Assembly (NCBI GenBank): GCA_015711755.1
Contig: JACVIY010000002.1
Location: forward strand, 1-50,867
Direction: 5' to 3'
Length of the DNA stretch: 50,867 bases
DNA from: Candidatus Geothermincola secundus
GTDB taxonomy: Bacteria > Actinomycetota > Geothermincolia > Geothermincolales > Geothermincolaceae
In this document: positions 15,510 to 29,504 of the stretch, piece by piece
Layout of the letters: each line of letters starts with the position of its first letter
Position numbering within the stretch: the stretch's first letter is position 1
Notes under the pieces: model-generated
What the model saw: the letters and a program-made list of their open reading frames with translations, nothing else
Told to the model about the DNA's origin: nothing
Database searches by the model: none
Translations under genes and position numbers: made by a program

Positions 15510-17888
15510 TCAGACGCATGTGCGGGAGATTATCTCCTCCTTGACCCCGTCGGGCAGGTCGTCGAAATAGGCGCAGTATCCCGCCACCCTGACCACCAGC
15601 CCGGGATGCTTCCCGGGATGGCGGCGGGCATCCTTCAGCAGTTCCGGGTCCAGCACGTTGAACTGCACCTCCATGCCCCCCGCAGCGCCGTAGGCCTCGA
15701 TGAGCGCCGCCAGCCTGGAGACTCCCTCCTCCCCCCGCAGGGTTCTCGGGTCGAAGCTGAGGTTGAGGGCGTAGCCGTTGGGCGCGAGAGGGGGAGGGAC
15801 CGAGCAGACCGAGCGGATGACGGCGGTGGGACCCTTACGGTCGCAGCCGCCTGCCGGGCTCAGGCTGGAAGCGAAGGGCTCCCCCGATCCCCTTCCGCTG
15901 GGAAGCGCCCCGGTTCGCCTGCCGAAAGCCACATGGCATGTCACCGAGTAAAAGCCGGCCACATAGGGCCCTCCCCGCTCGCTCCGGTAAGGCCGAAGGC
16001 AGCGGTTGAACATCTCGGCGGTCCACCGGGCGTAACCGTCGGGGAGGGGATGGTCGTTGCCGAACTTCGGCGCTTGCTTGAGTTCGGCCCGCAGGCGCGC
16101 GCGCTCGGGAGAGCCGCGAAAATCGCAGCGGAGCGCCTCCGCCACCTCTCCCATGCTGTGGCTCTTCCTGCGGAAGACCACCTCCTCCAGGGCGGCCAGG
16201 GAATCGGCCACATCCGCCAGTCCCACCCCCTGCACCCCGCTGGAAACGTAGCGGGCCCCTCCCTCGGTGAGGTCCCTGCCGCTCTCCGGGCAACCCTCCA
16301 CCAGGAGCGAGGAGAAGGGGGTGGGGTGATATTCGCGGTTTCCCCTCTCGATGAGCCGGAAATCCTCCATCATGCGTCCCAGCTGATACCGCACCTGGGC
16401 CTCGAATGCATCCAGCACGTCCTCCATGCTGCGGAAGGAAGCGGGGTCGGGCGTCGCTGTCCCCTCCCGGCGGCGCTTACCGAAGCGCCTGCCCCTGTTG
16501 AGCGCCAGTTCCAGACAGACGGGCAGGTTGAAGAGCCCGGCATCGGTGGAGAAGAAGCTCTTGCCGGGCAGCGACAGCTCCACGCATCCCACGATGCCGT
16601 AATCTCTCGCTTCTTCCAGCGGGTAACCCGATGAGGTGAGCGCCTCCACCGCCGCCTCGTCGCAATAGACCGCGGGCATGCCCTTCCCCTCCTGGGCCAC
16701 CTCGGCCACCCTCTCCAGGTAGCGGCGGGGAGAGCCGGCATGCACCCTCGCCTGGAAATTGGGGTCGCGCAGGCCGTATCCCTCCATGGCCTCGAGGAAG
16801 AGCATGGTCAGGTCGTTGACCGCGTCCCCGCCATCGCGGTCCATCCCCCCGATGGTAACCGCCTGGACCACCAGGTAACCGCCGTGGTATTCGCTTATGC
16901 GCTGCGAGAGCAGGAAGACGTGCTCCACCGCCTTGGCGGAGAAGCAGCGCAGTAGCTCCAGGGCCCGCTGTCGGGTGATGCGGCCCTCCTCGAGATCCCT
17001 GCGGTAATAAGGGTAGAGGTACTGGTCGGCGCGCCCGAAGGACACCGCGGAGTTGAGCCCCTCCAGTATGACCGCCAGGTGGGTGAGCCACAGCGACTGC
17101 AGGGCCTCATGGAAGGTGCGCGCCGGGCCGGCGGGGACTCGGCGGAGGATGCCCGCCATCTCCTCCAGTTCCTCCCTTCGCCGGCGATCCCTTTCCGCCC
17201 GGGCCTGCCTCTCCGCCTCCCGCGCCAGCCGCTCCGCGTAGGAGACGAGGCCCTCGAGGGCGATGCGGGCAGCGGCGTGAAAGGGGCCGTCCATCCCCTC
17301 GATCCTCTCGAGGAATCCCTCCGCCCCCAGGCGCAGCATCTCCGGATAACCCGGGATGAAGTGGCCGATGCCTCCCGCCTCGTTGATGAGATAGTAGGTG
17401 GGGTCGAGCTGTTCCCTCACGTATCCTGCCAGGCGACCGCTGCCGGCCAGGGCGCGCCAGGGCAGGTTGCGTCGGGCCCAGTAAGGGAAGACCCGAAAGA
17501 CAAGGTCGGCCCGCTCCCGCAGGGAAATCTCCAAAGGGGTCACCTTGCGCCGGCCTATCCAGAGAAGGTCCTCGCTCATCCACAGGGAGGCGAGCTCCGG
17601 CTGCAGCAGGGCGGAGACGCGGTGCGAGCCGGGGTTGCCCGCTATGAGCTCGTCCGGCCAGATGCGGGCGGACTTGTTGCAGAGAAGGTGGCGCAGGGCG
17701 CGGGCCCTGCGCAACGCCATGGGCGCTTCGGGTTCATCGTGGTGCCGGAAATAATCGGTGATAAGCGCGGCGCGTTCGGTGTCGAGGCAGACCGGCTCCC
17801 GTAGGAGCGCTTCCCTGATGCGGGAGAAGCGGTCGGAGCCGCGCTCTCCCTCAGTGACCCTCATGACCGAAGCCGTCTCCCGGGTCAT
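15510..17888 (-). CDS. Glycyl-radical enzyme of unknown substrate (PFL2/dehydratase-like)
   Basis: Cys loop IVGCVE, Gly loop [23 protein letters not shown]; start probably ATG 17888. Confidence 0.88.
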
Positions 17889-18165
17889 CCTCTCCACCAC
17901 CTCTCGGCGTACCGCCCACCTCAGCACCAGCGGCTCTTTCGCGCAAACGCAGCAGTAGGCCACGGGCTCCCTCCAGCTCCTCCGGCGGCACCAGCACCCT
18001 GCTCAGGCCCACGCTGCCGAAATAGGGGCGGGGGACATCGGTTAGCTCGTAAGGGTGGAAGCCCTCCTCCTCGAGGATTCCCCTCACCAGCTCGGCCTCC
18101 ATGTACTCCCCGGTGAAGACCACCGGGAGTTCCCTGCCGCGCCGCAGGCAATCGAGCCAGCCCAT
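17851..18165 (-). CDS. DUF2007-like small protein
   Basis: MEAELVRGILEEEG...RVLVPPEELEGARGLL pattern. Confidence 0.6.
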   Translation of the reverse strand: MGWLDCLRRGRELPVVFTGEYMEAELVRGILEEEGFHPYELTDVPRPYFGSVGLSRVLVPPEELEGARGLLLRLRERAAGAEVGGTPRGGGEDDPGDGFGHEGH

Positions 18166-20373: not shown

Positions 20374-21759
20374 TCACAGGAGAAGCGAGGATATGGCGCG
20401 GTCCAGGTCCTCCAGGTTGCGGCATACCCGCGCCTCCTTGAGATGGGGCATGTATTCCCCCATCACGCTGTCCCCGGTATCCCAGAAGGGCCGCGGCTCG
20501 GGGTTGAGCCAGATGATGCCGCGGGAACGGCGGGCCATGTTCTCCAGTGCTCCCGCGCAGGGGTCGTTCTGGTTGTTGCGCGCGTCCCCTATTATCAATA
20601 TGTAGGTGCGGTACCCCACGTCCTGCAGGTATTCATCGCAGAACTGGCGGAAGACGCTGCCGAAATCGGAGCGTGCGTAGTAGACGATGTCCGCCTCCTG
20701 CAGGGCCATGCGCACGCCCTCCTCGATGCTCTCCTCGTCGAAGAAGGAGGTCACCTCGCCCAGCTCGTCCACGAAGACGAAGGAGCGCACCCGGGCCAGG
20801 CAGTCCTGGATGGTATATACGAACCGCAGCATGAACTGTGATACCCTGGCCACCGAGCTGGATACGTCGCAGAGCACCAAGAGCTCCACCTTCTCCCGCC
20901 GGCGGCGCCTCATCACCAGGCGGAAGGGTATGCCCCCGTGCTGCATGTTGCGCCGCAGGGTGCCCTTGACGTCCAGGCGACCGCGGCTCGAGCTCTTCTC
21001 CCGCAGGGCCAGCTTGTTGCGCAGCCGCCGCGCCAGGGCGTAGACGGCTTCCCGCATCAGCTGCAGCTCGGCCTCGTCCAGCTCCGACAGCGGCCTTCCC
21101 ATCAGGCGCTTCATCCTCTCGGACCGCGAAGCCCCGCCGGCTCGCCTGGTCTGCTCCCTTTCCACGAACCGCCGCACCGCCGAGCGGAACTCTTCCCGCA
21201 GCTCTTCGAAAATCCGGCGCAGCTCCTCAAGAGAGCCCTCCTCCCATCCCGCTTCCCGCAGGAGCTCCAGCAGTCGCGCCAGCTCCGCCTCCGCTCCTTC
21301 CCAATCGAAGGAGTCGAAGATACGCCGTGTGTACATGCCCACCTGCTGCCGTGTTTGGAGCTGAGAGGTCCCCACGCCTCGGGCACCCTGCCTGATGAGG
21401 GTCTCCCATTCTCCTCCCTGCCCCGTCAAGAGCGTCATCAACAGGAGGGCACCCGCCGCTTCGCCTTCCCGGGCCGCGAGCTCCAGCTCTTCCTCGAGCT
21501 TCCTTTTGAGATCATCGTCCAGCGCCCCGTCATCCTCGGGGCGAGGGAGCCCGTAAAAATAGAGGGGGAACAGCTCCTCGAAGACGGAGAGGTCCCGCGA
21601 GCGCTTGATCAGGGTGGACCGCAGGGCCGTTTTGAAGAAAACGAGGTCGGTCAGGTCCACTGCCCTCAAGGCCCGCAGCGCGTCCATCACCTCAGCCGGC
21701 GACACAGGTATCCCGGCGCCGCGCAGTCCTTCGATGAAATCCATGACCCTATCCTGCAA
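20374..21759 (-). CDS. VWA domain protein, CoxE-like
   Basis: LCDVSSSV MIDAS, SDFG, IGDARNN, WLNPEP. Confidence 0.88.
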   Translation of the reverse strand: MQDRVMDFIEGLRGAGIPVSPAEVMDALRALRAVDLTDLVFFKTALRSTLIKRSRDLSVFEELFPLYFYGLPRPEDDGALDDDLKRKLEEELELAAREGEAAGALLLMTLLTGQGGEWETLIRQGARGVGTSQLQTRQQVGMYTRRIFDSFDWEGAEAELARLLELLREAGWEEGSLEELRRIFEELREEFRSAVRRFVEREQTRRAGGASRSERMKRLMGRPLSELDEAELQLMREAVYALARRLRNKLALREKSSSRGRLDVKGTLRRNMQHGGIPFRLVMRRRRREKVELLVLCDVSSSVARVSQFMLRFVYTIQDCLARVRSFVFVDELGEVTSFFDEESIEEGVRMALQEADIVYYARSDFGSVFRQFCDEYLQDVGYRTYILIIGDARNNQNDPCAGALENMARRSRGIIWLNPEPRPFWDTGDSVMGEYMPHLKEARVCRNLEDLDRAISSLLL

Positions 21760-21791
21760 AGCCCGCCTCCCCGGTCTTCACGCAGTCTCCG

Positions 21792-22745
21792 TCAGTCCGC
21801 AAGCAGGCGCGCGCTCTCTGCTACTTTAGCGATGTCCTTCTCGTATTTGAGGATGACGTTGAGCGTACCCCTCAGTGTATCCCGGTCGAGCTTCTCCGCG
21901 TTGAGGACCAGCAGGGCCCGTGCCCAGTCCAGGGTCTCGCTGATGCCGGGGGGCTTCTTCAGGTCCAGCTTGCGTATGCGCTGCACCGCCTCCACCACCT
22001 GCGCGGCCAGCTCCTCCCTGATGCCCGGCACCTTGGCCAGCACGATGGCGGTCTCCCGTTCCCTCCCGGGGAAATCCAGGTAGAGATGGAGGCAGCGCCT
22101 CTTCAGGGCGTCGCTCATCTCCCGGGAGTTGTTGCTGGTGAGCACGACCATGGGGATATGCCTGGCGGTTATCGTGCCTATCTCGGGTATGGATACCTGG
22201 AAATCGGAGAGCACCTCCAGCAGGAAGGCCTCGAACTCCGGGTCGGATTTGTCCACCTCATCGATGAGCAGCACCGCCGGCTCATCGGAGATGATGGCCC
22301 GCAGCAGAGGCCGGGGGACCACGAACTTCCGGGAGAAGAAGACCTCGTCCTGCCGGGCCACTCTCTCCACCGCCTCGGCCAGGGAGCTGACCCCGGCCAG
22401 CTCCTGCGCCAGCACGTCCTTGAGGATCTGGGTGTAGAGCAGCTGCTTGGCGTATTCCCATTCATACAGCGCCTTGGACTCGTCAAGCCCCTCGTAACAC
22501 TGCAGGCGGATGAACTCCCATCCCAGGGCGGCGGCGACCACCTTGCCCAGATCGGTCTTGCCCACGCCCGCAGGGCCCTCGACCAGCAGGGGCTTTCGCA
22601 GCTGCTGCGCCAGATAGATAACTGTCGCCGTTTCCCGGCTGCATATATACCCCTGTTCCGCCAGCCGCTCCACGACCTCCTGCGGATCGCCGAACATCTC
22701 GCCGCTCCCTTCCCGGCCCGGGGGACCGCCCTCCCGGCCGCTCAT
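21792..22745 (-). CDS. MoxR-family AAA+ ATPase, CoxD-like (possible AssE/BssE-type chaperone)
   Basis: EGPAGVGKT, RLQCYEGLDESKALYEW, LLIDEVDK, DALKRRC. Confidence 0.9.
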   Translation of the reverse strand: MSGREGGPPGREGSGEMFGDPQEVVERLAEQGYICSRETATVIYLAQQLRKPLLVEGPAGVGKTDLGKVVAAALGWEFIRLQCYEGLDESKALYEWEYAKQLLYTQILKDVLAQELAGVSSLAEAVERVARQDEVFFSRKFVVPRPLLRAIISDEPAVLLIDEVDKSDPEFEAFLLEVLSDFQVSIPEIGTITARHIPMVVLTSNNSREMSDALKRRCLHLYLDFPGRERETAIVLAKVPGIREELAAQVVEAVQRIRKLDLKKPPGISETLDWARALLVLNAEKLDRDTLRGTLNVILKYEKDIAKVAESARLLAD

Positions 22746-23488
22746 CGCTCCAGTTCCCCGCGCAGCCTGCGGTAGATGCGCATGCCTATATCCAACCCGC
22801 GGTCGATGAAATCCGGACCATAGCGGCGGCCGGTGCCGGTCCTGAAAGTGGACTTGATGCGCTCTATGCCCCCCATCGAGGGGAGGAAATGATCGAGCAA
22901 GACCGCCAGAGATATGTCGAACGGCGCCGCCATGGACCAGACCGTGCTGATGAAGTTGTCGGGGCCCCAGCGGAACTTATCCGCATCATAAAGCGAGTCG
23001 GAGAGCAGGCGGCAGGCGGGTTCTTCCAGCGCCTCGGTCTCCCGGAAAGCCTCATGGTTGCGGATGGCCGCGGCCACCGCCTCTATCTCCCATGCTTCCA
23101 ATCCCCTCTGAAACAGTATTCCCGCCGCCTCCTCTGCCCCGCGCCTGGCGTGATCGCTCTCCTCGCGCTTGACGTCATGCAGGGTGCCGGCAAGATGGGC
23201 CAGGCGCACCAGGCCGCGCACTTCGCCATCCGGCCGCCCGGCGGCCTCGATGATGATGACCGCCCCGGCATCAACGGCCACTTTGCGGACGTGGTCCAGG
23301 CCGTGCCCCAGCCGGTCGTAGCGCTCCCCCACCAGCCGCAGGCAATCCTGCACCAGCGTGTCCCTCTCGAAGCGGAGGCGCGATTCCCCCACCTCAGCCG
23401 CCCTCTCCCGGTAGAACAGAGGGGGCAGCACGGTCGCGGCTATCTCCTCGGAGACGCTGCGTGCCCATTCCAGCTCGCGCCGCTCCAT
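22742..23488 (-). CDS. HD-domain protein
   Basis: GHGLDHVRKVA, LHDVKR, DHARRG, NHEAF, YDADKF; ATGA overlap with MoxR gene. Confidence 0.8.
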   Translation of the reverse strand: MERRELEWARSVSEEIAATVLPPLFYRERAAEVGESRLRFERDTLVQDCLRLVGERYDRLGHGLDHVRKVAVDAGAVIIIEAAGRPDGEVRGLVRLAHLAGTLHDVKREESDHARRGAEEAAGILFQRGLEAWEIEAVAAAIRNHEAFRETEALEEPACRLLSDSLYDADKFRWGPDNFISTVWSMAAPFDISLAVLLDHFLPSMGGIERIKSTFRTGTGRRYGPDFIDRGLDIGMRIYRRLRGELER

Positions 23489-23775
23489 CACCGTCTCCCG
23501 TCCGTGACCCTTTCCGGCTCGGCTCCGATCCCTCCAAAAGGCGGGCCCCATTCTGGAGCGAGCGCCGCCGCGGGGGATGCGGCCATTAGATTTTATCGGA
23601 TGAGGCGGGTTCCAGCTTCATGCGGTCAGCGCCTCTCCGCCGGCCAGAGAAAAAGAAGCCGCGGACGGCAGGCGTCGGTGAAGGGCAGACTCCTCGTTTT
23701 CAACCTGAGCCTTTCGCCTGCTGCCCGCGGCAGTGGGGCATGTTTCCGTTTTCCGCCGCGTTGGCTTTGCCGCCG

Positions 23776-24123
23776 TCAGGAGGACGGGGCTCCCGCCCTC
23801 TTGATGCGGCGCCTCGCCATTCTGATGAAGTCATCCAGCGGGGCAAGGTTCAGACAGCGGTTGAGCTCCGTCAGCTCCCGCAGGATAACCTCCGCCTCTC
23901 CCGTCATCCCCTTCCCCATGGCTTCTTCCAAGCGTCTGGCCATCTCCCTGGCTTTTTCCTCGTATCCCTCCTGCATCTCCTGGCGGTCGCAGATGACTTT
24001 GTTGCCGCAGCGGGGGCACGCCCGAAATACCAGGGGACCGCAGCACATAACATTGCCGATCATGCGGAAGAGCGCGGCCTCCCCCTGAAAGCCGCATCCG
24101 TCGCAAGTGATCATGGGATCCAT
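23776..24123 (-). CDS. MasE-like rubredoxin/zinc-ribbon protein with helical C-terminal extension (paralogue 3)
   Basis: CDGCGFQGEAALFRM...FRACPRC; same pattern as 26249-26416 and 26413-26646. Confidence 0.65.
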   Translation of the reverse strand: MDPMITCDGCGFQGEAALFRMIGNVMCCGPLVFRACPRCGNKVICDRQEMQEGYEEKAREMARRLEEAMGKGMTGEAEVILRELTELNRCLNLAPLDDFIRMARRRIKRAGAPSS

Positions 24124-24169
24124 GTCCCGCGCTCTCCTGCAGCTTTCCGCCTGAGCCCGGCGGGAGCCC

Positions 24170-24334
24170 TCAGCGCGCCTGGAAGGAGGCGCACTGGTCC
24201 GCGGCCTTGTCCGCGCTAACCGGCTTGGCCGTCCAGTACTGACTCTTTCCGTCATCCTCCCGCTGAACGCAGTCCCCACGGCCGGGGTCCTCTTCCAGGG
24301 GGAAGAACCATTTGCACTCGCTGCAGCTGGCCAT
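24170..24334 (-). CDS. assC: Fumarate-adding enzyme gamma subunit (BssC/AssC/MasC-like), 54 aa
   Basis: Not in ORF track. MASCSECKWFFPLEEDPGRGDCVQREDDGKSQYWTAKPVSADKAADQCASFQAR; GGAGG RBS; matches the BssC-type pattern CxxCxxFF...GDCV...YWxxKPV...C. Confidence 0.88.
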   Translation of the reverse strand: MASCSECKWFFPLEEDPGRGDCVQREDDGKSQYWTAKPVSADKAADQCASFQAR

Positions 24335-24349
24335 TTTCCCTTTCCTCCC

Positions 24350-25273
24350 TCATCCGCCTACGGTCACTTCAAGGTCCCGCAACAGGAAGACCTCCACGAT
24401 CTCGCGCAGTCTTTCCTCGGGGTATCCCTCACCTTGCGGGAAGGGGTATTCCAATCCGAACACGCGGTATTTGGCTCCCGCATAGGGGTGGTATGGGAGC
24501 ACGTCCACTTCCAGGCCGCCTGCCGCCTGTTGCCGCAGCCCGGCCACGAAAGCGGCGGTGGCCTTCAGGTTTTCCTCATCATCGTTCACCCCGGGTATGA
24601 GCGGCACCCGCACCCGCATGGCCACTCCCGACTCCGCAACCCTGCGGGCGTTCTCCAGGATGAGGCCGTTGGAGCGCCCGCAGAAGGCGCGATGCCTGTC
24701 AGGGTCCATGTGCTTGATGTCGTAGAGCACGAAATCGGCGCCCTCAAGGGCCTTTTTCAGCTTCTCCCAGGGCGCGTGCCCGCAGGTATCCAGGGCGGTG
24801 TGTATGCCCCTTTCCTTTGCCGCTTTCAAGAGGGCCGCCGCGAACTCCGGCTGGGCCAGGGGCTCACCTCCGGAGAGGGTCATGCCGCCCCCTGAATTGC
24901 GGTAGAAGGGCTTGTCCCGCTCCACCTCCGCCATTATCTCCTCAACGCCGGCCTCCCTACCCCAGACCACCATGGCCTCATGGGGGCAGGCCTCGGCGCA
25001 AGAAAAGCAATCGATGCACCTGCCCTTGTCGATGCGCGGCCTGCGTTCCCCCGCCATGGATATCGCCCCCGCCGGACAGATCTCCATGCAAGTTCCGCAA
25101 CCCTCGCAGTTGGGCGAGTAGGGGAAGACCTCCGGGAAGCGCCGATTTCCCTCGGGATTGTGGCACCAGCGGCAGTTGAGCAGGCATCCCTTGAGGAAGA
25201 CGGTGGTGCGGATGCCCGGTCCGTCGCATAGGGAATATGTCTGTATGTCGGTGATGTACCCCTTGATGTCCAT
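24350..25273 (-). CDS. Glycyl-radical enzyme activating enzyme (radical SAM, AssD-like) no. 2
   Basis: DGPGIRTTVFLKGCLLNCRWCHNPE, 2x CxxCxxCxxxC ferredoxin insert, SGGEP. Confidence 0.93.
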   Translation of the reverse strand: MDIKGYITDIQTYSLCDGPGIRTTVFLKGCLLNCRWCHNPEGNRRFPEVFPYSPNCEGCGTCMEICPAGAISMAGERRPRIDKGRCIDCFSCAEACPHEAMVVWGREAGVEEIMAEVERDKPFYRNSGGGMTLSGGEPLAQPEFAAALLKAAKERGIHTALDTCGHAPWEKLKKALEGADFVLYDIKHMDPDRHRAFCGRSNGLILENARRVAESGVAMRVRVPLIPGVNDDEENLKATAAFVAGLRQQAAGGLEVDVLPYHPYAGAKYRVFGLEYPFPQGEGYPEERLREIVEVFLLRDLEVTVGG

Positions 25274-25282
25274 TTCCGCTCC

Positions 25283-26230
25283 CTATCCCCCGATGGTGGT
25301 CTTGATGCCCCTGCCCTCCAGGATCTCCCGGAAGTCCTCAACGTCGTATTCGGAGAGGCTTTCCGTCTCCTCATAGTCCCATTCCCTCCCCAGCCAGCGG
25401 TACTTGTCCTGGCACCAGTTGTGGAAGGGCAGTATGTCCACCTGAAGCAGGGCCGGTTTGAGCGTTTCCAGGAACTCGGCTATACGCCCCATCTGCTCGG
25501 TGGAGTCGTTGAAGCCGGGGATCACCGGCACCCGCACTATGATGCTCTCGCCCTCACAGGCAAGCCGGGCCAGGTTGGCGAGTATGGGCGAGTTGCTCAC
25601 CCCGGTGCGCAGAAGGTGCAGCTTTCCGCTCAGGCACTTGATGTCGTAGAGAAAGATGTCCACGTAGGGCCGGAGGGAATCCAGTACCTCCCAGGAGCAG
25701 AACCCGCTGGTGTCCAGGCAGGTATGGATGCCGCGGCGCTTGGCCTCACTCAGCAGCGCCAAGGTGAAGCGGGGAAAGCTGGTCGGCTCACCGCCGGTCA
25801 GCGTGAGCCCCCCCTCCGAGTTGTTGTAGAAAGGGATGTCCCGCTCAACCTCATCCAGTATCTCTTCCACGGTCATCCTCTCGCCCACCCGCAACAGGGC
25901 TTCATAGATGCACGCTTCCACGCATTTCATGCAGCGGTCGCACTTCTCGCGGTCTATCTTGTGGTAATGACGGCCCTCGTCATCGGGGTCCAGTTCCACC
26001 GGAGGTTGTACGGCACCTTGCGGGCACGCGTCGAAGCAGCGTCCGCACTGCCGGCAGAGGCTCTGCTTCCAGTAGATCTCGGGCCTGAAATCGATGCACT
26101 CGGGGTTATGGCACCAAGCACACTGCAGGGCGCATCCCTTGAGGAAGACGGTGGTGCGGATGCCCGGCCCGTCGTTTATGGAGAACCTCTGGATGTTGGT
26201 GACGTAGGCCTTCTCGCCGTCCTCGTGCAT
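25283..26230 (-). CDS. Glycyl-radical enzyme activating enzyme (radical SAM, AssD-like) no. 1
   Basis: DGPGIRTTVFLKGCALQCAWCHNPE, ferredoxin insert CRQCGRCFDACP/CDRCMKCVEAC, TGGEP. Confidence 0.93.
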   Translation of the reverse strand: MHEDGEKAYVTNIQRFSINDGPGIRTTVFLKGCALQCAWCHNPECIDFRPEIYWKQSLCRQCGRCFDACPQGAVQPPVELDPDDEGRHYHKIDREKCDRCMKCVEACIYEALLRVGERMTVEEILDEVERDIPFYNNSEGGLTLTGGEPTSFPRFTLALLSEAKRRGIHTCLDTSGFCSWEVLDSLRPYVDIFLYDIKCLSGKLHLLRTGVSNSPILANLARLACEGESIIVRVPVIPGFNDSTEQMGRIAEFLETLKPALLQVDILPFHNWCQDKYRWLGREWDYEETESLSEYDVEDFREILEGRGIKTTIGG

Positions 26231-26248
26231 GCCCGCCGCCCCGCCGCC

Positions 26249-26416
26249 TCAGGCCTTCGCCGCCTTCTCGCGGCGCTCCTCCTCCAGCTCGTTGCAGACC
26301 ACCCAGTTGTAGCATTTCGGGCACTCGCGGTATGCCGTCTCCGCATCCAAGGTCGTGTTGTAAAGGTAGCGGAATTCGGACTTGTGCCCCTCGAAGCCGC
26401 ATTTATCGCATCTCAT
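26249..26416 (-). CDS. MasE-like small subunit (paralogue 2), 55 aa
   Basis: MRCDKCGFEGHKSEFRYLYNTTLDAETAYRECPKCYNWVVCNELE; ATGA coupling to the upstream gene. Confidence 0.8.
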   Translation of the reverse strand: MRCDKCGFEGHKSEFRYLYNTTLDAETAYRECPKCYNWVVCNELEEERREKAAKA

Positions 26417-26646
26417 CTCGCATCCTCCGTATCCTCCCTGATGAACTTCTTCCCGAACACCGGCGAAAGCCCCCAGGGGCGCGCCGGCTCCCGCAGTTCC
26501 CGCTCCTCCTCCACCTCGTTGAAGTAGTTGATCTCGCGGCAAACGGGGCAGCGCCGCAGGGAGACCGCCCCGATGCCCTCGGCCGGCCCCAGGTAGCGGA
26601 ACTCCGCCAACGACCCCCTGTATCCGCAGCGCACGCAGCCCGCCAT
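26413..26646 (-). CDS. MasE-like small subunit (paralogue 1), 77 aa
   Basis: CVRCGYRGSLAEFRYL...LRRCPVC...NEVEE...PWG. Confidence 0.75.
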   Translation of the reverse strand: MAGCVRCGYRGSLAEFRYLGPAEGIGAVSLRRCPVCREINYFNEVEEERELREPARPWGLSPVFGKKFIREDTEDAR

Positions 26647-26650
26647 GCCT

Positions 26651-26953
26651 CTACTTCTCCTCGATTTGCCTCTGGGGACGGAAGGTGGGGTCCCACATGA
26701 ACTCGCTGGTGTCGGTGCGGATGCGGTCTATCTCCTTGTACTGGGAGCACTGAGAGGCGTCGGTGTTGTCGAAGACCACCTTGTTCAGCTCGTTCTCCAC
26801 GATCACCGCGCAGTGGCCGTCGCCCGCCGCAGAGGCGGAGTGCTGGCGGAAGTGCTCGCACTTGCCGCAGGCTTTCTCGGGCATCGCCTGCCTGCCTTTC
26901 TGCACCCCCCCCATCACGAACTGATCCCGAAGCTTGGCCCAATCATCGCTCAT
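26651..26953 (-). CDS. assB: Fumarate-adding enzyme beta-like Fe-S subunit (AssB/MasB-like)
   Basis: CGKCEHF...GHC...C four-Cys pattern; immediately downstream of the alpha subunit. Confidence 0.7.
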   Translation of the reverse strand: MSDDWAKLRDQFVMGGVQKGRQAMPEKACGKCEHFRQHSASAAGDGHCAVIVENELNKVVFDNTDASQCSQYKEIDRIRTDTSEFMWDPTFRPQRQIEEK

Positions 26954-26999: not shown

Positions 27000-29504
27000 T
27001 CAGCTGCCCAGCGACTGCACGTTGCGGGCGATGATGGTGTCCTGGGTCTTCTTGTTGAGGTCGATGAAGTGAGCCGAGTAACCGGCTATGCGCACGATGA
27101 GCTCGGGGTACTTCTCCGGCTCCTTCTGGGCCGCCTTAAGCGTCTCGTTGTCCACCATGTTGAACTGCACGTGGTCGATGCCCAGATCCGCCCAGGTCTT
27201 TATGTAGGAATGCCAGATCTGGAAGCCCTTCTCCCCCGCCAGCTGGGTGGGATTGAGCCGCTGGTTGAGCAGGGTGGCTCGCACCGCCCCGATGTGGTCT
27301 ATCTTGGCGACAGAGCGGAGCACTGCCGTGGGCCCCTTCTTGTCCAATCCCGCCCCCGGCGAGCAGCCCCCATCGTAAAGGGTATCGCCCAGCCGCCTCC
27401 CGTTAGGCAGCGCCCACACTTTGGTGGCATTGGTAACGTAGGCGGCGATATTCTCCGGAAGCGGCGGCCAGGGGTTCCCGGTGGGATCCTTTATCTCCCA
27501 CGAATGGGCGGCCACGTCGTTATGGCAGCGCACGTGGATTTGATCCACATAATCGTCATCGTTGCCCCACTTGGGAGCGCGCACGAAATCCATGCGCATC
27601 TCCTCATAGCCCTCCCAGTTGTTGCGGAGGGCCTCGATGAGCTGAGCCATGGTGTATTTCCTCTCATCGAAGACGAGCTTTTTCACCGCGGCCAGGGAAT
27701 CCCCCGTCTCCATCCAAGCGAAGAAGGTAATCCAGGAGTTGCCCCGCTCGCTGGGGTGAGCGGAGTCCACCCCCAGGTCCACGCAGCGCTCGTAGATGGC
27801 CGAGAGGAATGGCCGCGGGTCCAGCTCGGAGGAGTTGTAACGGCCCGCCCCGGTCACCTTGGTGAGCGTGTCCATCATCCACTTGATCTGGGTGTACCAG
27901 GCTTGATAGAGCTCCTCGAAGCTCTCGAACTTGGAAGCGTCCCCGGTGTGGGGGCCGAACTGCATCTGCAGCACCTGATCGAACCCGTCGAAGAGCGCGT
28001 ATTCCATGGCCTTGGCGGCGATGATGGTGGCATTGGCCATGCGGAAAGGCTGACAGCCCCATTTGGTGTCGGGGCAGGGGGACATGCAGGCCTGATGCAC
28101 CCAGCGCCTTGCTTCCTTGAGGGGATGGCGGTGCCAATGCATGGCGTTGGCGATGAGGATGGGATCGTTGCGCATGGAGGGATAGCCCAGCCCCTGGCGG
28201 ATGCACTCGAAGACGTTGCGCAGCGTCTGCATGCGCACCTGTGGATGGTAACGGAAGGCGAAGGTGGGGTTGGCCACCCTCACCAGCCGCGCCGCCTCCA
28301 GCAGGCAGTCGGTCATGTCGTTGCAGGCGTCGGTCCCGTCCTCGTTGACCCCCCCCAGGGTCCATACCCAGGTACCGGTGATGCCCTGCAGGGTGTCTCT
28401 CGCCAGCATCAACCAGAACCAGCCCACTTCGTAGCAGCGGATGAGGAACTCTCCGGTGAGGTCGAGGGCCTCTTCCTTCGTCAGCACCTTGTCCTGATTG
28501 ACATCCTTGTCGTAGAAGGGCCCGTGCCAGTAGTCGGGCCGGGCGGGCCAGGCCCCGTCGCAGGCCTCGTAGCGGGTTAGTATCTGTACGAAGTGGTCGA
28601 ACTGCAAGGATTCCCACAGATGCTCCGGCGGTCTTGCCGGCACCTTCCAGCAGGTCTCGGCGATGCGTTCCAGCTCCTGCTTGCGCTGCGGGTCGGTCTC
28701 GAAGTTCTCGGCGATTATGCGCGCCAGCCGGCTGTAGCGGCGGGCCCAGCGCACGGCCGCCTCCAGGGTTATCTTCATGGCCTTCCAGATGTCCAGCTTC
28801 TTGTAATACTCGTAGTCCTCAGGCTCGGGCACCCTGCGGTATATCCTCTCCTCCGCCTCCGCCATTTTCGCGTCGATCTCGGCGATGATACCCTCGAAAC
28901 CCAGGCGGAACATGTAGTCCCACTGCTTGGTGCAGTAGCCGATGCGGTGTATGGGAAGCCCCCAGCCTATGGCCCCGGTCATCAGCTTGACTATCTCCTC
29001 AGGGGGCAGCTTGGAGAACATCTTGGTCCCGGCGGTCTGGGGGTTCCAGTAATCGCAGATCTCCCTGATGATGCGCAGGCTCCGCTCCTCCGGCTCGGGG
29101 ATGACCGTGCGGTCGTTGTAGAGGTCCTCGTTGAGGAGGAAGAGTATCTCGGGGTGCCAGACGATGGTATGCGGGCGCGAGCCGAGGTAGCCCATTATCT
29201 GAGCGTGGTCCTGGATGAAGATGGTTATGTTGTCCCATACGTGGGCCAGGGCCTTGGCATGCCTGATGATCAGGGGGTCATGTTCGTTGGCCTGAAAGGC
29301 CTGGGTATAGAGGATGGGCCTTTCCAGATCCACTTTCACCCCGGGCTGATAGCCCGAGCCCTTGGCCCCCTTCTTCCAGACCGCCTTTCGCAGGTAATCG
29401 AGGCGTTTGGATCGCTTCTGCTCGGCCCACCACCACCATTGCCCGCTCTTTTCGATCTCCTCGATGCTCCTCATCTCCACAGCCGACATCTTTGGACCCC
29501 CCAT
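27000..29504 (-). CDS. assA: Alkylsuccinate synthase-type glycyl-radical catalytic subunit (AssA/MasD)
   Basis: WW-AEQKRSKRLDYLRKAVWKKG N-terminus, Cys loop WVHQACMSPCP, Arg 15 residues after the catalytic Cys (BssA Cys493/Arg508 spacing), Gly loop VRIAGYSAHF. Confidence 0.9.
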   Translation of the reverse strand: MGGPKMSAVEMRSIEEIEKSGQWWWWAEQKRSKRLDYLRKAVWKKGAKGSGYQPGVKVDLERPILYTQAFQANEHDPLIIRHAKALAHVWDNITIFIQDHAQIMGYLGSRPHTIVWHPEILFLLNEDLYNDRTVIPEPEERSLRIIREICDYWNPQTAGTKMFSKLPPEEIVKLMTGAIGWGLPIHRIGYCTKQWDYMFRLGFEGIIAEIDAKMAEAEERIYRRVPEPEDYEYYKKLDIWKAMKITLEAAVRWARRYSRLARIIAENFETDPQRKQELERIAETCWKVPARPPEHLWESLQFDHFVQILTRYEACDGAWPARPDYWHGPFYDKDVNQDKVLTKEEALDLTGEFLIRCYEVGWFWLMLARDTLQGITGTWVWTLGGVNEDGTDACNDMTDCLLEAARLVRVANPTFAFRYHPQVRMQTLRNVFECIRQGLGYPSMRNDPILIANAMHWHRHPLKEARRWVHQACMSPCPDTKWGCQPFRMANATIIAAKAMEYALFDGFDQVLQMQFGPHTGDASKFESFEELYQAWYTQIKWMMDTLTKVTGAGRYNSSELDPRPFLSAIYERCVDLGVDSAHPSERGNSWITFFAWMETGDSLAAVKKLVFDERKYTMAQLIEALRNNWEGYEEMRMDFVRAPKWGNDDDYVDQIHVRCHNDVAAHSWEIKDPTGNPWPPLPENIAAYVTNATKVWALPNGRRLGDTLYDGGCSPGAGLDKKGPTAVLRSVAKIDHIGAVRATLLNQRLNPTQLAGEKGFQIWHSYIKTWADLGIDHVQFNMVDNETLKAAQKEPEKYPELIVRIAGYSAHFIDLNKKTQDTIIARNVQSLGS

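Follow-up and report, generated by a model that had tools for sequence, protein, structure and literature searches.

MasE-like proteins in an alkane-type synthase operon of Candidatus Geothermincola secundus and their apparent grouping into three delta subfamilies

Introduction

Why does a single alkylsuccinate synthase operon encode three different small proteins of the MasE kind, and do these represent a local triplication of one accessory subunit or an older set of distinct ones? The question is raised by a stretch of 50,867 nucleotides from Candidatus Geothermincola secundus (Bacteria; Actinomycetota; Geothermincolia; Geothermincolales; Geothermincolaceae), namely positions 1 to 50,867 of the forward strand of contig JACVIY010000002.1 in NCBI GenBank assembly GCA_015711755.1, and this whole stretch is referred to below as the window. 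Its source is a metagenome-assembled genome (MAG) of 2.39 Mb that is 83% complete. On the minus strand the window holds what reads as an operon for an alkane-type glycyl radical enzyme (GRE), within which lie three MasE-like genes, called here d1, d2 and d3, and two genes for activating enzymes, AE1 and AE2. An initial annotation had seen in d1 to d3 three divergent paralogues with a shared cysteine motif, and had suggested an expanded accessory set that might make the complex asymmetric, tune the access of substrate or supply adaptors for the two activases. The analysis described here points instead to a conserved accessory set, in which each of the three proteins groups with a different delta subfamily.

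MasE is the delta subunit of the (1-methylalkyl)succinate synthase (MASS) of Azoarcus (Aromatoleum) sp. HxN1 (PDB 9o8u chain D). According to the main text of the structure paper it binds one Fe via its four cysteines and lies beside the beta subunit on alpha, in the space that the activase must occupy, its C-terminal tail holds the glycyl radical domain, and the solved complex is asymmetric, being alpha2-beta-gamma2-delta; whether delta acts during or after activation was left undecided there (PMC12358834). A 2026 review describes delta as present in MASS alone and as having no defined role (PMC13450708), and genome papers use the singular, writing 'masE' or 'a MasE-like protein' (PMC7180275, PMC13685792).

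Results

Three small proteins of the MasE kind

The three genes are all on the minus strand. d1 (26413-26646, 77 aa) is a listed open reading frame (ORF) with an ATG start and encodes Cys4 knuckles followed by a PWG-containing tail; d2 (26249-26416, 55 aa) starts at an internal ATG of a longer ORF at 26249-26542 and lacks a tail, ending 8 residues past the domain; and d3 (23776-24123, 115 aa) starts at an internal ATG of a longer ORF at 23776-24279 and carries a Cys4 knuckle domain, a hairpin with a CC pair, and a helical bundle in place of the PWG tail. The internal starts chosen for d2 and d3 agree with those of orthologues, and the Shine-Dalgarno-like sequence AGGAG lies about 10 nt upstream of the d3 ATG at 24123. 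Aligned with one another the proteins keep C4, C7, G8, G11, F16, R17, R31, C33, P34, C36, E44 and E47 invariant, which reproduces the motif first noticed in the three reading frames. Each has at its N-terminus the arrangement CX2C, some 25 residues, CX2C (d1 C4/7/33/36, d2 C3/6/33/36, d3 C7/10/36/39), in positions that match Cys3/6/32/35 of MasE.

That the three are homologous to each other and to MasE, as the initial annotation proposed, is borne out. By BLASTP d1 and d2 are 41% identical (E 5e-11), d2 and d3 40% (E 1e-13) and d1 and d3 37% (E 4e-7). Among 177,635 distinct PDB sequences MasE is the top match for all three: for d2 at E 4.9e-9 over residues 1-47; for d1 at E 6.8e-5, the alignment extending through PWGLS in d1 against PWGKS in MasE; and for d3 at E 0.15, which is the top match yet weak. 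d3 is placed in the MasE family because it is linked to it through d2 and through structure comparison. No Pfam or NCBIfam model scores above its cut-off for d1, d2, d3 or 31 relatives; a word-based homologue search with d2 returned only 10 close relatives; and no fused delta form was found in proteins of 206-2000 aa with a mixed 31-row delta alignment as the query, which is weak evidence.

The context of d1 to d3 is that of an ass/mas operon with alpha, beta, gamma and activase genes, and it recurs in the loci fetched for comparison. In the four nearest actinomycetotal MAG loci (L007, L008, L009 and L012) all three genes are kept in unchanged order (4/4). The ratio of nonsynonymous to synonymous substitution rates (dN/dS) is 0.05-0.27 for d2, 0.07-0.27 for d3 and 0.30-0.91 for d1, these being rough values with dS above 1 in most pairs, and d2 and d3 appear on this measure to be under purifying selection.

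In an AlphaFold2 model of d3, built on a 29-row alignment (mean pLDDT 81.4), the five strands of the knuckle domain fall within residues 4-46, and residues 47-70, 74-91 and 94-111 form helices. The CC pair (C27, C28) and the helical tail, already described in the initial annotation as being of about 60 residues, are thus real features, and in the model the tail runs to about 65. Foldseek aligns the model with 9o8u chain D at probability 0.98, with a root mean square deviation of 2.2 Å and 31% identity over 45 columns, the E value of 0.36 being weak because the domain is so small; a rubredoxin-like knuckle fold is therefore predicted for d3. From the strand order of the model the CC pair would sit on the tip of the hairpin at 26-30, with strand 31-35 between it and the C36/C39 knuckle, and at the end of the domain that faces away from the metal knuckles. 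Compared with 48,161 chains by VIA-align, the model resembled nothing more specific than generic three-helix bundles and designed miniproteins (Z at most 11.1, below the caution line for helical bundles), so that the modelled tail yields no functional clue from this comparison, and a search of the ESM Atlas gave a best score of 0.87 and no informative cluster.

Three delta subfamilies across ass loci

How the three proteins relate to those of other alkylsuccinate synthase (ass) loci was surveyed in contigs from one genome per species, in which 476 assA places were confirmed; the best 80 of these gave 76 distinct loci and, with the window, 77 sources. All six frames were scanned with iterated hidden Markov models (HMMs) for alpha, beta, gamma, delta and activase, and the beta and gamma HMMs picked ORFs separate from those picked by the delta HMM. 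Delta-like ORFs occur in 43 of the 77 sources, many of the remainder being short contigs, and they fall into three types. Type I proteins, of about 73 aa, end in a PWGKSAGIEGLAED-like tail, a motif that MasE itself shows, and their genes adjoin alpha or beta. Type II proteins, of about 112 aa, have extra Cys in the loop between the knuckles, the hairpin with a Cys or selenocysteine (Sec) that is invariant in the 29-row type II set, and a three-helix tail. Type III proteins have 73-94 aa and a tail of the form PWG..LRG..F.

On a tree of 87 delta proteins from the 76 loci and the window (78 columns, two 5'-truncated type II pieces excluded) d1, d2 and d3 each group with a different type. Type I comprises 44 rows, 38 canonical and 6 tail-less including d2, lying on one side of a branch with an SH-like approximate likelihood ratio test (SH-aLRT) value of 91; the orthologues of the tail-less d2 come from 4 actinomycetotal loci and 1 Peptococcaceae locus. 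d3 is one of the 30 rows of type II (SH-aLRT 86). The 13 rows of type III, with d1 among them, were constrained as one clade, which raised the log-likelihood by 17 relative to the free search (approximately unbiased test, p-AU 0.81). An alignment of d1 with 12 type III proteins (A4) has C4, C7, F16, G26, R31, C33, P34 and C36 invariant and W58, G59 and G65 nearly so. The grouping into subfamilies I, II and III is supported rather than proven by these sequence comparisons, and d2 would belong to the canonical MasE group, subfamily I, with d3 in II and d1 in III.

Thirty-five loci have alpha flanked on either side by 5 kb or more. Among these well-flanked loci nine carry types I, II and III, 15 carry I and II, three carry I only, one carries II only and seven carry none. 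The nine triple sets are found in Actinomycetota (5, the window and four others), Desulfomonilaceae (3) and a Desulfatibacillum MAG (1), and the gene order differs between them, being alpha-beta-III-I-AE1-AE2-gamma-II in the window versus III-AE1-AE2-(beta)-gamma-alpha-I-(beta)-II elsewhere. The claim of a triplication special to this operon does not survive, as the three copies group with three different subfamilies, each represented in ass loci of several phyla. The further possibility that triplicates are routine in ass clusters holds in part, given that at least two types are present in 24 of the 35 loci and all three in 9 of the 35. Multiple delta genes per ass locus seem on these counts to be the norm, and the single-delta operon of HxN1 looks minimal. 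A different route to three copies is seen at L063:13580-13885 and L069:8737-9042, where the third delta gene repeats type I, is longer by about 30 residues at its C-terminus, and gives the tandem arrangement I+II+I. In the Deltaproteobacteria MAG DeMMO5_3 there are three assA genes (L010, L011, L082), each with only a beta-like gene alongside, and no delta, gamma or activase gene was found within 10 kb of them; two of these alphas are 76% identical to that of the window.

A cysteine or probable selenocysteine site in type II

In eleven loci (L013, L016, L023, L024, L025, L030, L043, L058, L065, L066 and L073; for example L030:13331-13666) the type II frame is broken by a stop codon, which is always TGA and always in one alignment column (11/11), and when translation is carried past the TGA the products can be aligned with the Cys forms from end to end. 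The C27 column of the alignment of 29 type II proteins (A3) has TGA in 8 rows and Cys in the other 21, and is invariant in that sense. Between d3 and the Peptococcaceae form the alignment is free of gaps, with the first Cys of the CC pair of d3 at the Sec position and the second at the position next to it; the codon of d3 in the Sec column is TGC, for Cys. A hairpin that resembles a selenocysteine insertion sequence (SECIS), of at least 6 bp and beginning 3-12 nt past the codon, was found in 9 of 11 TGA forms versus 2 of 21 Cys forms, and the mean folding energy is -14.3 kcal/mol for the TGA forms against -8.3 kcal/mol for the Cys forms (Mann-Whitney p 4e-5, on sequences that are not independent). 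selB scores above its curated cut-off in three of the four TGA-bearing genomes examined, and no selB over the cut-off was found in the window's 83% complete genome. The TGA-bearing type II genes probably encode selenoproteins, and the CC pair of d3 appears to be the Cys form of a selenocysteine site.

The patterns around this site in type II are U-C, U-x2-C and C-U, and in Thermodesulfobacteriota C-x3-[C/U]-x2-C, with three extra Cys. Where Sec and Cys alternate next to a partner Cys, the site is usually a redox-active one. A HMMER search of 1.84 billion representative proteins with a type II profile gave 81 matches at E up to 1e-3, of which 30 reached E up to 1e-10; 42 of the 81 are pieces that start past the Cys/Sec position, P0149 among these being identical to the tail encoded at a TGA-form locus. 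Gene callers, it would seem evident from these pieces, truncate the Sec-form type II genes in public protein sets.

A second activase clade and type III

In a tree of the activases the AE2 of the window falls with 11 others in a long-branched clade (12 rows, SH-aLRT 99, stem length 1.29) apart from the common clade that contains AE1. Type III is present in 12 of the 12 loci with an AE2-clade activase and absent from none of them, and it is found in 0 of the 20 loci that have AE1 only. The one locus with type III and without AE2 is L012. The proposal of adaptors for the two activases thereby receives circumstantial support for d1 alone, and not for the other two. A prediction of the complex of AE2 (12-row alignment) with d1 (13-row alignment) scored 0.14 against a mark of 0.32 and was run without controls.

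L012 is also the only actinomycetotal relative that lacks the second activase, and its type III gene at L012:12871-13095 has no PWG motif; the pairs that involve this gene have the highest dN/dS values, 0.49-0.91. A frameshift behind the divergent tail was considered and rejected, since the other frames contain no PWG either.

The operon and its neighbourhood

The remaining genes of the operon are those expected of the enzyme. alpha (27000-29504, minus strand, 834 aa) is an AssA/MasD-type catalytic subunit with Pfam PFL-like and Gly_radical domains, whose best solved relative is MasD (9o8u chain A; E 0, 1126 bits), the benzylsuccinate synthase (BSS) alpha TutD scoring far below this (542 bits, E 1.5e-161), and it is 58-66% identical to AssA records of Desulfatibacillum, Desulfoglaeba and Smithella. 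beta (26651-26953, minus strand, 100 aa) is of the MasB type, matching 9o8u chain B at E 3e-9 over residues 3-97, and no Pfam family matched it in the Pfam scan. gamma (24170-24334, minus strand, 54 aa) is of the MasC/BssC type (Pfam BssC_TutF 1.8e-16; MasC, 9o8u chain C, 2e-10). AE1 (25283-26230, minus strand, 315 aa) and AE2 (24350-25273, minus strand, 307 aa) both match TIGR02494, at 345 and 342 bits, and are 46% identical. These matches agree with the initial annotation in that the operon is predicted to encode an alkane-type synthase, that is an alkylsuccinate or (1-methylalkyl)succinate synthase, with two activases. The order on the minus strand is alpha, beta, d1, d2, AE1, AE2, gamma, d3, and the operon is compact, with intergenic gaps of 4-46 nt and the d2 start overlapping the d1 stop by 4 nt. 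A scan of the operon for promoters and terminators gave counts not above those of shuffled sequence, and no additional delta-like copy was found elsewhere in the window's own, 83% complete, genome.

Flanking genes encode MmgE/PrpD, a B12-binding domain protein, methylmalonyl-CoA mutase, an AMP-dependent ligase and an enoyl-CoA hydratase, along with a MadB-like AAA ATPase and a MadC-like VWA protein, a gene set typical for ass islands. The MadB-like protein (352 bits, cut-off 475) and the MadC-like VWA/CoxE protein are encoded directly downstream of the operon at 20374-22745 on the minus strand, and beyond this pair is a 269-aa ORF without assignment at 22742-23551; the group may correspond to the 'AssE chaperone' type genes of ass islands. 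Actinomycetota are not usually linked with anaerobic alkane activation. The closest relatives of alpha, at 83-88% identity and with identical gene order, are from MAGs of that phylum, one being Candidatus Solincola, the closest named relative, and a complete alkylsuccinate synthase island is present in the window and in L007-L009 and L012. A second GRE, of 817 aa, is encoded in the window at 15510-17963 on the minus strand; it is of the PFL2/glycerol-dehydratase type, scores below every equivalog cut-off and is 30% identical to AssA. A third, with its own activase, is on contig C41 of the window's genome.

Discussion

The reading we favour, and hold to be somewhat more probable than its competitors taken together, is that d1, d2 and d3 are genuine accessory proteins of the synthase, being Cys4 rubredoxin-like modules of the MasE kind, one from each of three old delta subfamilies, with the separate roles considered below. 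The operon of the window would then be ordinary for its kind, having a conserved three-subfamily accessory set and not a triplication.

Among the explanations that compete with it, chance ORFs in GC-rich DNA or generic zinc-ribbon proteins can be dismissed with the least hesitation. No Pfam or NCBIfam family reaches its cut-off and CxxC...CxxC ribbons are common, which is what such an explanation would lead one to expect, but MasE is the top PDB match of all three proteins, synteny is kept in all four nearest relatives, d2 and d3 seem to be under purifying selection, the spacing is operonic and an SD-like motif precedes d3. Very improbable too is a recent, lineage-specific triplication of masE that left redundant or asymmetrically used copies. 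In its favour are the presence of three paralogues in one operon, two of them adjacent with a 4-nt overlap, and the asymmetry of the solved MASS complex (PMC12358834). In the tree, however, each copy stands closer to proteins from other phyla than to the two beside it, identity among the three is no more than 37-41%, and the same three types are found, in different gene order, in Desulfomonilaceae and Desulfatibacillum loci.

Somewhat less easily set aside, although still unlikely, is that AE2 and d1 serve another GRE, for instance the orphan enzyme at 15510-17963 or a second assA copy elsewhere. The genome has three GREs and three activases, the enzyme at 15510-17963 has no activase adjacent to it, and five of the eight Thermodesulfobacteriota-type AE2 loci (L018, L019, L023, L037 and L056) have two assA genes. 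However an orthologue of the orphan enzyme (61-66% identity) is present in the L012 genome, whose ass locus has no AE2, and was not found in the AE2-bearing L008 genome (a MAG, so that absence is weak evidence), and in L030, L043 and L007-L009 the 22-kb locus has only one assA along with AE2 and type III. It is also rather doubtful, though deserving a little more credit, that d3 and its type are merely structural or metal-binding, with the extra Cys and Sec residues acting as ligands of a second metal site or cluster and not as a redox couple. Sec is able to act as a metal ligand. The C-x3-[C/U]-x2-C form of Thermodesulfobacteriota offers three extra Cys, with which a site is possible given one more ligand, and all other GRE small subunits bind metal centres, as stated in the review (PMC13450708). 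Across the type II set, though, conservation extends only to [C/U] and one Cys close by, and in the forms of the window, other Actinomycetota and Peptococcaceae no more than CC or UC is present, which is insufficient for a separate site; in d3 the strand order of the model would put the pair on a hairpin tip remote from the C36/C39 knuckle.

A number of observations weigh against the preferred reading of three old subfamilies with distinct roles. The tree has 78 columns, long branches and many unresolved forks, and its free search split the five actinomycetotal d1 proteins from the other eight type III proteins. The direct sequence match of d3 to MasE is weak, and its membership comes by transitive and structural similarity. 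A delta-like gene is absent from seven of the 35 well-flanked loci, among them L010 and L011, whose alphas (76% identity) are the next closest to that of the window after those of Actinomycetota. The 12 AE2 loci represent three lineages only and not 12 independent events, and the type III gene of Thermodesulfobacteriota, being placed upstream of AE1, does not adjoin AE2. The hairpin counts are phylogenetically non-independent, and the hairpin partly encodes conserved residues. Invariance of the Cys/Sec column holds only within the 29-row type II set: about half of the 20 full-length wider relatives, including P0131, P0137, P0141, P0143, P0146, P0153, P0154 and P0171, have no CC/UC motif and no Cys at that place, and so the Cys or Sec is not essential to the fold or to every member.

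How might three delta proteins be used by one synthase? d2, of type I and here tail-less, would be the structural delta beside beta. d1, because it keeps the PWG tail, may engage the glycyl radical domain in those steps that involve AE2. In d3 the knuckle scaffold may present a redox-active Cys-Cys pair on its hairpin, the three-helix bundle might serve as a docking module, and the protein would act as a thiol- or selenol-based redox or radical-control subunit and not as another copy of the clamp. A bolder scheme, which we regard as speculative and on balance improbable, has the alkane-activating succinate synthases of most lineages use up to three different delta subunits that take turns on the glycyl radical domain, with type III and AE2 installing or re-installing the radical, type I clamping the domain once activation is over, and type II quenching, protecting or redox-gating the radical by way of the selenol/thiol pair (thiol/thiol in the window), which would donate a hydrogen atom or an electron. 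Were that scheme true, type II would give glycyl radical enzymes their first selenoprotein subunit, and a built-in 'deactivase'.

The nearest known system is MASS itself. MasE shares with d1 to d3 its small size and CX2C...CX2C cysteines in matching positions, its setting in an operon with alpha, beta, gamma and activase genes, the rubredoxin-like knuckle (for d3, in the model) and, with d1, the PWG motif of the tail. d2, in contrast, is without the tail of about 20 residues, and d3 has instead the three-helix bundle of about 65 residues and the Cys-Cys pair, which would be Sec-Cys in relatives. The HxN1 operon (masA-G) has a single delta and a single activase, as far as the main text of the structure paper shows (PMC12358834), whereas the window has three delta-like genes and two activases. 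The beta subunit of BSS and the beta and gamma subunits of MASS are likewise small Cys-rich accessory proteins, which modulate the glycyl radical domain and substrate access, and beta and gamma are also in the operon of the window; they differ in having a fold like that of high-potential iron-sulfur proteins and a [4Fe-4S] cluster, and have no sequence relation to d1-d3. Thioredoxin reductase has a vicinal Cys-Sec centre, a redox motif in which Sec and Cys alternate, and selenoproteins of that sort share with type II this alternation near a partner Cys. There is no sequence or fold relation between them, type II being built on a rubredoxin-like knuckle in a GRE operon, and the d3 of the window has Cys and not Sec. 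As to the activases, Desulfatibacillum alkenivorans AK-01 is reported to have the gene pair assD1 and assD1' in one ass cluster, and in having two activase genes per cluster it resembles the window and 11 of the fetched loci.

MasE and its fold are already published; the set of three delta subfamilies is undescribed as far as literature searches show. Those searches returned no paper linking a second activase to a MasE-like protein, and full-text searches gave nothing relevant on MasE paralogues, on MasE-like proteins or on selenocysteine together with alkylsuccinate synthase. The word 'paralog' does not occur in the main text of the structure paper (PMC12358834).

Both the 2025 paper on the MASS structure and the 2026 review of GREs name the role of delta as an open question, namely why a rubredoxin-like protein is located where the activase must bind. 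Most ass operons encode two to three diverged deltas, one of them tied to a second activase clade and another having a Cys/Sec position. For annotation it matters that no Pfam or NCBIfam model covers the delta genes and that Sec forms seem to be miscalled as truncated ORFs in public protein sets. Reconstitution with a single set of the HxN1 type may not carry over to other alkylsuccinate synthases, and the subfamilies offer handles in this regard, namely which delta to co-express for activation in vitro and which residues to mutate.

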